From: an uncultured Phycisphaerales bacterium
GTDB lineage: Bacteria; Planctomycetota; Phycisphaerae; Tepidisphaerales; Tepidisphaeraceae
DNA length: 64,000 nucleotides
NCBI GenBank assembly: GCA_963758525.1
Contig: CAVWVQ010000003.1
Coordinates: forward strand, 128,001-192,000
Direction: 5' to 3'
In this document: positions 45,836 to 52,352 of the stretch, piece by piece
Position numbering within the stretch: the first letter of the stretch is position 1
Layout of the letters: every line of letters starts with the position of its first letter
Program-made: the position numbers and the translations under genes
The notes under the pieces: generated by a model
The model's database searches: none
What the model saw: only the letters and a program-made list of their open reading frames with translations
Told to the model about the DNA's origin: nothing

Positions 45836-46784
45836 ATGAAAATTGATTGCCACGTCCACATCTCCGCCTGCACGCCCGGCCATGGATCGATGTCGCAGCG
45901 GCTGCTCAAAAGCCTTCCGTTTCGCTTCATGCGCTGGCGGCTCGGGATCGAGGGGAACGACGAGAAATCTGAACGCCGGCTCGAATCGCTGCTTGCCCAG
46001 ACCATCGATCAGACACGCGAGCTCGACGCGGCGGTGGTGCTTGCGTTCGATGCGGTGCACGATCGCGACGGCCGGCTCGATGAAGCTAACACGCATCTGT
46101 ACGTCACCAACGACTATGTCATCGAACTGGCTCAGCGCCATCCGAAGATGCTTTTTGGCGCGTCGGTGCATCCGTATCGCAAGGACGCGGTGACGGAAAT
46201 CGAACGCTGCGTCGCGGCGGGCGCGGTCCTGCTCAAATGGCTGCCGATCGTGCAGAATTTCAACCCGGCAGATGAACGCTGCTTCCCGTTCTACGACGCG
46301 TTGGCACATCACCAATTGCCGCTCTTGAGTCACACTGGCGGCGAGAAGACGCTGCCGCGGCTCGACGAATCGGTAGCCGACCCGATGCTGCTCGTCCCGG
46401 CACTCGAGCGCGGAGTGACGGTGATTGCCGCGCATTGCGGCACACGCTCCTGGTGGGGCGAGCCGGATTATCTCCCTCAATTCATCCGCCTCGCGCGAGC
46501 ACGAGCACCTGTACGGCGACACCGCCGCGCTCAATGTGCCGTCGCGGTGGTACGCATGGGAGACATTGCTGAAGGATGCGGTCGTGCGGAACAAGCTCGT
46601 TCACGGCAGCGATTGGCCGATCATCTCACTGCCCCGGACGAACACGCTCGGGCTCGGCAAGTCGATCACGATGATGCGGGAGAAGAACTGGATGCGGCGC
46701 GACGTTTTAATCAAGCAGCAATTGGGCCTCGATGACGCATATTGGAATCGTGCCGCGAACGTGCTGCGGCTGCCGAACGCTTGA
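45836..46784 (+). CDS. amidohydrolase_2 family protein (frameshift at ~46495)
   Basis: IDCHVH, SVHPYR, LSHTGGE, IAAHCG, YGDTAAL, VHGSDWP. Confidence 0.85.
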
Positions 46785-47158
46785 AGGATGCGATCCGCGT
46801 CGCTTCAATAAATACGTTGCGCCCGACCGCAATTCGCATCAGCCCGCTTCTTCGGGGCGTGCCCGAAAATCCGGAAGCTCAGTATCCGCCCTACCGCGGC
46901 CAAGAACTAGCATCAGGTTGTTGCAATTCGTCAATTTGCCGTCTTACTGCACGGCGGATGTCAGCAACATCCGCGCCCTGATAGGGAGAACCCGAGAACC
47001 ATTACTGGCGCGAGGGGACCAGAGGCGTTCTCCACCAACAAAAGTTACACCTTCGTGAGGCGTGGCACTCAATTCCCGCTTTTCCGCTCCGGGAGAGAGA
47101 GCTGGGTGAGGAAACGACCCATTCCGCCGGCCTATCATCCTTCTACGGCAACGCGATC

Positions 47159-47186
47159 TTGACGGGGCGGCCGGTCCCGCGAGAAT
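47159..47186 (+). promoter_or_regulatory. possible sigma70 promoter for the leader ORF-secA unit
   Basis: TTGACG-16 nt-GAGAAT. Confidence 0.35.
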
Positions 47187-47207
47187 AATCGCACGTCTGG
47201 CGTGCAA

Positions 47208-47510
47208 ATGACCTCGAACAGTCGACGAATCATGGCGGTGATGGTGGTGACGGCGGCGCTGTGCGCCGATCAGGTCGTGGTCGCTGCGCCAACATCCCCC
47301 CAGCCGACTGAATTTGGCAGCATCGCGCAACGCCTGGTCGGGAGACTGGCGGAAAACTTCCGCAATGTCATCCCGGCGACGCGCTGCTGGGCCGCGCGCA
47401 GGACGGTGGGTCAGATCGCACTGCCGGATTCGATCGGCGCGGCCCAAACCTTGACTGCCCGTCGACAGACGTCTCCCTTCCAGTTTCGGCTGCCTCCGCC
47501 GACGCTCTGA
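47208..47510 (+). CDS. secA leader ORF, candidate secretion-monitoring arrest peptide
   Basis: Signal-like N-terminus (RRIMAVMVVTAAL), C-terminus SPFQFRLPPPTL, 104 nt upstream of secA. Confidence 0.65.
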   Translation: MTSNSRRIMAVMVVTAALCADQVVVAAPTSPQPTEFGSIAQRLVGRLAENFRNVIPATRCWAARRTVGQIALPDSIGAAQTLTARRQTSPFQFRLPPPTL

Positions 47511-47614
47511 CTCCCAATCCCGGGGCCGACCGGCTCTCTGAGCCGGAGCTGCGCCGCCCCTGTCGGTTCTGATTTCCCGTCTTTCTATTGGCATTTTGGT
47601 ATTGGAGTCGCGTC

Positions 47615-51574
<3,960 letters not shown>

Positions 51575-51678: not shown

Positions 51679-51924
51679 ATGATGGCTTTTACAAAACAAG
51701 AAAAGGAAATCGTGGACCGGTTCCAGCAGTTGCCGCCGGAGCGGCAGCGGCATGTCATGCTCCTCATGTTTCGGACTGACACCGACCGTTGGCGGCGATA
51801 TCAGCAGGACGGCGAACAGCAGCTACGCAGGCTGGCAGCCGAACGCGGACAGGATTGGGACAAGCTGGATGACGAACAACGGCAGGACCTGGTGAGCGAT
51901 CTGCTTCATGAGGATCGTCCATGA
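51679..51924 (+). CDS. putative antitoxin
   Basis: 81 aa; ATGA overlap with the PIN gene. Confidence 0.6.
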   Translation: MMAFTKQEKEIVDRFQQLPPERQRHVMLLMFRTDTDRWRRYQQDGEQQLRRLAAERGQDWDKLDDEQRQDLVSDLLHEDRP

Positions 51925-52352
51925 AGCTCGTGGTCGTATTCGACACGAGCGTTCTGTTCTCTGCGATCGGCTGGAGCGGGAAACCAAGCCAATGCGTTTA
52001 GTTGGCCCGCGACGGCCGTATCGAAGGCGTGACTTGCACGGAAATTCTGGATGAATTGGCTGACAAGCTTTCCATCAAACTCGCGTTCAGCAACCAGCAG
52101 CTCATTGAGGTCATAGGTTCACTGCAGATCTTCCTGAAACCGGTTGCAATCACCGGACAAATGACCGGTCTTTGCGCTGATCCGAAGGACGACATGGTTC
52201 TGGAATGTGCGCTGGTTGCGGGAGCGACCCATGTGGTGAGCAGCGACAAGAAGCATCTGTTGACTCTTCAGCAATTTCGTGGAATCGGTATCGTCTCCCC
52301 CGCGCAACTTATTGGACTAGTTACCGCGTTCGCGCCGCCAGCAGGCACGTGA
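51921..52352 (+). pseudogene. PIN-family toxin with in-frame TAG at codon 27
   Basis: MKLVVVFDTSVLFSA...SQCV*LARDG...DPKDDMVLECA...VVSSDKKHLL; TAG at 51999-52001. Confidence 0.75.

Follow-up and report, generated by a model that had tools for sequence, protein, structure and literature searches.

In E. coli, secA is preceded by secM, whose product carries a signal peptide as well as an arrest motif at its C-terminus. The ribosome stalled on SecM unfolds a stem that hides secA's Shine-Dalgarno (SD) sequence, and for that system the regulation is proven. Arrest-dependent induction of a downstream export gene has also been described for uDF_RQH_Enterobacterales-secDF2, VemP, MifM and CliM, with an SD-masking stem demonstrated for uDF_RQH and MifM.

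Closest to the locus studied here is the family uA_LPPP, defined as ORFs upstream of secA with LPPP or xPPP in their last 15 residues (Fujiwara, Tsuji, Yoshida, Takada and Chiba 2024, Nat Commun 15:2711, PMC10987492). Its 50 sequences come from Phycisphaerales, UBA1161 and WQYP01 (PMC10987492); UBA1161 corresponds to Tepidisphaerales (PMC11131199). For one homologue of 115 amino acids, toeprinting with foreign ribosomes placed the second proline in the P site, and the substitutions L110A and P111A weakened the arrest. The arrest index of the homologue in vivo was 22.4 in B. subtilis and 1.59, corresponding to no stall, in E. coli (PMC10987492). Stem-mediated induction of a downstream gene was tested in that paper solely for uDF_RQH, and the portions of it covered here report no test of a stem, a promoter or secA induction for uA_LPPP; its Supplementary Figures, including Fig. 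S7 on uA_LPPP, may bear on this point. A literature search for a published secA-induction test of uA_LPPP yielded none, returning only PMC10987492, its preprint and listings judged unrelated by title and abstract. The string LPPP does not occur in the covered portions of a 2026 review and of the LudP preprint.

The window analysed here is a stretch of 64,000 nucleotides from an uncultured Phycisphaerales bacterium (assembly GCA_963758525.1, contig CAVWVQ010000003.1, positions 128,001 to 192,000). An upstream ORF (uORF) lies directly before secA, and the following features were assigned.

47159..47186, plus strand: sigma-70-like promoter, TTGACG, 16 nt, GAGAAT (1 found against 0.1 expected)
47208..47510, plus strand: uA_LPPP upstream ORF of 100 amino acids, ATG 47208 to TGA 47510, C-terminal end SPFQFRLPPPTL
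47208..47285, plus strand: predicted Sec signal peptide, residues 1-26 (heuristic), with a basic start, a hydrophobic core, ALCAD(R/Q) and a likely A-x-A cleavage site before AP
47322..47375, plus strand: conserved basic amphipathic segment, residues about 39-56, from conservation and hydrophobic moment
47472..47501, plus strand: conserved C-terminal motif SPFQFRLPPP, L95-P98 of 100 residues, stall position by homology
47615..51574, plus strand: secA, with PF07517, PF21090, PF07516, PF01043 and PF02810 above cut-off

A reading of this DNA made earlier from the sequence alone (the sequence-only reading) had described a leader ORF of about 100 residues with a hydrophobic head, 104 nt before secA, and these coordinates bear it out. 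The uORF belongs to the published uA_LPPP family. It is small (<300 aa), has no known function and sits immediately before secA on the same strand, and L95-P98 falls within its last 15 residues. Its host belongs to Tepidisphaerales, that is UBA1161, and a heuristic predicts an N-terminal signal or transmembrane segment. Between the end of the hydrophobic core and the Leu there are 76 residues, where the family definition asks for more than 30 between signal and motif. The same arrangement, with an N-terminal localisation signal and a length of about 100-150 amino acids, characterises the published members. Because it falls within the uA_LPPP definition the uORF is not new, as the sequence-only reading had suspected in warning that LPPP-ending leaders might already be described. 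That reading was also correct in holding the peptide unrelated in sequence to SecM: the SecM motif FxxxxWIxxxxGIRAGP is absent, the arrest motifs differ (GIRAGP against LPPP), and no Pfam family was found at E≤0.1. NCBIfam likewise gave no family at a meaningful score or E-value, and the exact protein had no match in the protein collection searched. Assignment to the RQH, ApdA or ApdP (RAPP-like) peptides was rejected, as the tail reads R-L-P-P-P. The uDF_RQH_Enterobacterales, VemP, MifM and CliM systems differ from the uORF in motif, target gene and phylum.

For comparison among relatives, 110 secA loci were collected and 24 duplicates removed, leaving 86 distinct Tepidisphaerales loci, the window's own included; one of them (L008) comes from an unpublished genome (G004) and is nowhere the sole basis of a claim. 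We scored an ORF of at least 40 codons, upstream of secA, with xPPP within its last 15 residues. A hydrophobic-headed ORF ending in xPPP was present before secA in 86 of 86 loci, with LPPP in 82, at a distance of 54-287 nt from secA. The same test applied to 1520 coding-like genes of the window's genome gave 52 with xPPP and 9 with LPPP upstream. Thus the conserved C-terminal LPPP looked for by the sequence-only reading is there, and the covarying pairs it proposed to look for beside it were not found family-wide. The peptides are 85-120 residues long with a median identity of 34% to that of the window, and share three blocks: the signal-like head with ALCAD(R/Q) and A-x-A/AP, the basic amphipathic segment at 39-56, and SPFxFRLPPP. 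The tail was found in 15 of 17 further loci from the same taxonomic family (two of the 15 apparently frameshifted); of the other two, one carries it ahead of an extended C-terminus and one is interrupted by N. Among 23 genomes from other families of Phycisphaerae, four had a hydrophobic xPPP-ending ORF and two a comparable ORF with a PP variant at its end; 17 had none. Two secA-upstream ORFs from another family (L112 and L114, the frame of L114 being less certain) end in LSPP or LAPP and are possible variants of LPPP. By title, the majority of the 80 closest named secA records are from Tepidisphaeraceae or Tepidisphaerales, which would place the host there. The uORF is a real, conserved and probably regulatory ORF.

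The only UBA1161 entry in the secA table of PMC10987492 has a PF-x-Y-x-LPPP tail resembling that of the window. As that table, in the form covered here, has a single member from UBA1161 and neither RLPPP nor FRLPPP occurs in it, whereas FRLPPP occurs in 62 of our 86 loci, the Tepidisphaerales form is barely sampled in print, yet lies inside the definition.

At the C-terminus of the peptide PPP is invariant among the 86 loci and the preceding residues are L in 95%, R in 84% and F in 77%; two or three residues follow PPP before the stop in 81 loci. By homology to the toeprinted uA_LPPP peptide, the stall is placed with Pro97 (47496-47498) in the P site. The distance from the end of the hydrophobic core to the Leu is at least 64 residues in all 86 loci. 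In the amphipathic segment A40 (80%), R46 (81%), L47 (86%) and R52 (70%) are conserved, and the hydrophobic moment is 0.55-0.66 against 0.42 or less elsewhere. This segment would sit just beyond the exit tunnel when the ribosome stalls. The window's head scores, heuristically, two basic residues, an 11-mer hydropathy of 2.67 and an A-x-A site; among relatives a hydrophobic 11-mer of at least 1.8 and at least one K or R were each found in 84 of 86. Within the head C19 (76%), D21 (86%) and A26 (84%) are conserved. The A-L-C-A-D-(R/Q) core (47256-47273 and relatives) is odd for a plain signal peptide, and may slow or gate export. A lipoprotein reading of the Cys was dropped, because the lipobox rule does not allow for a Leu directly before the Cys.

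An in-frame GTG at 47202 would add two residues to the uORF. No SD-like motif stands in front of it, and GGAG precedes the uORF in two of the 86 loci. Transcription from the promoter at 47159-47186 is predicted to start about 15 nt before the uORF ATG. With the incomplete locus L027 left out, 63 of 85 loci had a promoter site matching at least 9 of 12 positions no more than 90 nt from the uORF start, compared with 2/82 and 0/85 in control windows. No internal secA promoter was found between the uORF tail and secA in the 86 loci. With a promoter before the uORF and none between its tail and secA, the uORF is therefore predicted to be the first gene of the secA transcript, the two being co-transcribed from 47159 behind a short leader without an SD. 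No intrinsic terminator was found on the plus strand of the window's spacer, and a terminator in the spacer was discarded as a general feature (5 of 86 loci against 3.6 expected). One weak Rfam match in 46700-47800 (E 0.17, far below the gathering score) was also discarded. Short tandem repeats of 6-7 nt stand immediately ahead of the secA start, within the spacer, in L083, L092, L107 and L109, and in L010.

In the window's genome, folding predicts a stem over the secA start with the following arms.

47497..47518, plus strand: predicted 5′ arm, comprising the Pro97-Pro98, Thr and Leu codons, the stop, then CUCC(C)AAU
47601..47620, plus strand: predicted 3′ arm, comprising the secA SD GGAG (47604-47607), spacer and codons 1-2

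The sequence-only reading had counted about 18 bp between the 3′ end of the ORF and the secA initiation region, and all 18 listed pairs are Watson-Crick. It had also suggested that the PPP codons can pair over the secA ribosome-binding site. The Pro97-Pro98 codons do pair in this region, solely with GGCG 47617-47620 in secA codons 1-2; the SD itself pairs with the untranslated bases 47511-47515 directly after the uORF stop. Folding of this region, which that reading had proposed as a check, was done on 47480-47640 and gave the stem in the minimum-free-energy structure, the fold as a whole being no better than shuffles (z = -0.45; 58 of 200 shuffles as stable). The stem dominated in seven of nine unmasked folding windows, among them the two that cover the ORF wholly or for the most part, with segment probabilities of about 0.8-0.98, its outer 4 bp falling to 0.39 in one. 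In the other two (starting at 47400 and 47430) it was displaced by a helix from 47436-47452, a segment that pairs locally once the whole ORF is in the folding window. A segment lying 36-60 nt before the Leu codon matches the tail in pairing strength with this start region (-25.5 against -24.1 kcal/mol for the tail), and synonymous recoding of the tail left the stem equally strong in 25 of 60 trials.

On a modelled transcript (47193-47640), opening the start region 47600-47624 was predicted to cost 17.2 kcal/mol without a ribosome. With a ribosome on Pro97 the modelled cost was 12.2 kcal/mol (footprint to +15) or 14.4 kcal/mol (to +12), and for the SD alone it changed from 8.1 to 4.0 or 5.8 kcal/mol respectively. 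When 13 ribosome positions were scanned, the cost was lowest at codons 97-100 and at codon 75. With a folding window starting 60 nt before the Leu codon, the ribosome effect in this genome was just 0.6 kcal/mol. The partner of the SD lies at +16 to +20 from the first base of the P-site codon, at the edge of the footprint, and the SD stays paired with everything up to +12 removed. The earlier proposal that a stall at LPPP exposes the secA SD thus survives as a modelled drop of 3-5 kcal/mol in start-opening cost in this genome, without the direct part given to the PPP codons, which do not pair with the SD. The window locus is among the stronger predicted stems of Tepidisphaerales.

The register of the stem is not conserved across the relatives, and no family-wide covariation was found. 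When tails were swapped between loci, native tail-start duplexes were 0.8 kcal/mol stronger than swapped ones (z -3.3); the tail paired as specifically with the region -50 to -20 (z -3.1). No native-over-swap effect was seen for three upstream segments and the secA segment +40 to +70, nor in covariation of the PPP codons alone with the start region (z -0.4). Thirteen of 86 loci beat all 12 swaps, with 6.6 expected, and in 52 of 86 the native tail came out above synonymous recodings (p 0.023, kin not being independent). Expected tail-to-start pairs numbered 5.05 for native tails, 4.79 for swapped and 4.89 for shuffled ones (p 0.76 and 0.90), and the family median fold z was -0.24 against shuffles. 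A switch of at least 5 kcal/mol was predicted in 13/86 loci and 7.5% of swaps, one of at least 2 kcal/mol in 35/86 loci and 33% of swaps (paired test p 0.16), and one below 1 kcal/mol in 42/86 loci; with a wider folding window the median ribosome effect across loci was 0.13 kcal/mol. In one genus of 11 loci, a 7-bp helix over the SD was kept in five, with one G-C to U-A double change, and was mismatched or broken in six. For the signals in which native tails exceed the controls, the p-values overstate the support because kin are not independent, and the swap test is uncalibrated on a proven system such as secM-secA.

A fair reading is that pairing is common and mostly arises because Pro codons are rich in C and the start region is rich in G, while a minority of loci have a tuned helix. 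In relatives the C-rich tail appears to supply a pairing partner loosely rather than as a fixed covarying helix. The sequence-only reading had let the pairing supply the mechanism. That claim is partly supported: a switch is predicted in the window's genome, but the SD is not paired by the PPP codons, no covariation was found family-wide, and swapped or shuffled tails pair about as well. With the stem out of register in relatives and exchanged partners pairing about equally, a stem switch in this genome is therefore plausible by precedent only.

The Pro codons are themselves unusual. Of the 172 codons for the first two prolines of the motif, 55 are CCU; in the secA genes of these loci the first codon of a PP pair is CCU in 9 of 117 cases (p 5e-7), and the share of CCU in PPP runs of the window's genome is 14%. 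The third Pro codon is CCC in 35 of 86 loci. The anti-SD word CCUCC occurs in 49 of 86 tails, with an odds ratio of 2.3 (p 0.08) for its association with GAGG or GGAG SDs. An enrichment of CTT at the Leu codon was unsupported (p 0.15 against Leu-before-Pro in secA). The CCU enrichment fits an anti-SD word and equally fits slow decoding combined with avoidance of C runs, which these data do not separate; CCC and CCU codons have been reported to be slower (PMC12856214). The spacer is skewed towards C over G in 77 of 86 loci, with a median of 0.18 against 0.00 in 259 crudely called gene gaps of the window's genome. From 40 nt before the stop to 10 nt beyond it the skew is 0.38-0.65, except for the last 10 nt. 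A possible, though doubtful, extension is that the arrest codons are doubly coded, CCU-enriched Pro codons and a G-poor spacer making the stall site the default partner of the secA start, or the same C-rich tract serving as a Rho site. If true, the former would be a switch that needs no conserved covarying hairpin, and the latter a secretion monitor acting on transcription.

Taken together, we consider it probable that the uORF is a uA_LPPP secretion monitor exerting SecM-like control of secA initiation, with the stall placed by homology, the stem by prediction and the coupling to export by precedent. The predicted course is that a ribosome translating the uORF halts at LPPP and stays there until the signal peptide is pulled by export; while halted, it would open the predicted stem over the secA start site. 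By the precedent of SecM, VemP, MifM and uDF_RQH, translocation would release the arrest and more SecA would be made when export is slow. The arrest-peptide part of this reading is well supported by order-wide conservation, the signal-like N-terminus, the promoter it is predicted to share with secA and the published stalling of a family member. In TnaC-type attenuation a stalled ribosome covers a Rho loading site, and the stall could act on transcription here in the same manner, the C-rich, G-poor tail and spacer being the loading site. The C-over-G skew of the spacer and the rho gene in the window's genome favour this alternative, as does the lack of a predicted stem switch in about half of the loci. 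We nevertheless regard it as unlikely: the skew before the stop is in good part forced by Pro codons and was compared with a crude background set, the spacer is structured as well as short, intrinsic terminators are not in excess, and the tested Sec/YidC monitors named in the papers covered here act on translation initiation.

The arrest of SecM keeps its mRNA at the translocon, so that SecA is made there. A real stall could mainly do the same here, with new SecA made in place and the stem incidental, any run of Pro codons pairing with a G-rich start. The equal pairing of swapped and shuffled tails and the unconserved register agree with this, as do several loci with an almost open predicted start region and no switch; the native-over-swap duplex signal, the excess of loci beating all swaps, the advantage over synonymous recodings (small signals, whose p-values overstate the support, as above) and the position-dependent opening predicted in the window's genome speak against it, and we think it quite unlikely. 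That the leader senses EF-P activity or Pro-tRNA supply instead of export is improbable. Such a sensor would account for an invariant PPP with CCU-enriched codons, slow according to PMC12856214, and for efp as the immediate upstream neighbour of secA in 6 of 23 class-level genomes, none of which has the peptide; but the signal-like head and spacer length are conserved, efp lies about 4 Mb from secA in the window's genome, and in B. subtilis the homologue was found to stall in vivo, with both the Leu and the prolines required (PMC10987492). A chance frame in GC-rich DNA might explain the missing Pfam or NCBIfam family and the absence of the exact protein from the collection, but is refuted by conservation of frame, length and three blocks in all 86 loci, at a median identity of 34%, and its probability is negligible.

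As the uA_LPPP family and its stall were published in 2024, the discovery is modest. The near-universal Tepidisphaerales form extends the tunnel motif to SPFxFRLPPP and brings a conserved signal whose core is Cys-Ala-Asp, together with a conserved helix. Smaller additions are the conserved promoter, the CCU enrichment of the Pro codons and the occurrence of efp beside secA in some peptide-less lineages. The longer motif, the signal and the helix should help structural studies of a polyproline arrest that is still observed in B. subtilis in vivo.

Some features of the neighbourhood were also recorded. In the six Phycisphaerae genomes outside the window's family mentioned above (L117, L120, L122, L123, L131 and L133), efp lies 18-277 nt upstream of secA, and was confirmed by Pfam in four. 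A gene relieving polyproline stalls and a polyproline stalling peptide take the same slot in different lineages, which may be coincidence. At 1319 residues the window's SecA is unusually long and contains stretches inserted relative to the Pfam models, and in most relatives the open frame spans 1200-1500 codons. Upstream, an amidohydrolase-like gene (45836-46781) is split over two overlapping frames (ORFs ending at 46735 and 46784) with a shift near 46490-46500, which is probably an assembly error. On the 3′ side of secA (51679-52352), a PIN-domain gene (PF13470, E 1e-10) together with a small gene resembles a bacterial toxin-antitoxin pair.
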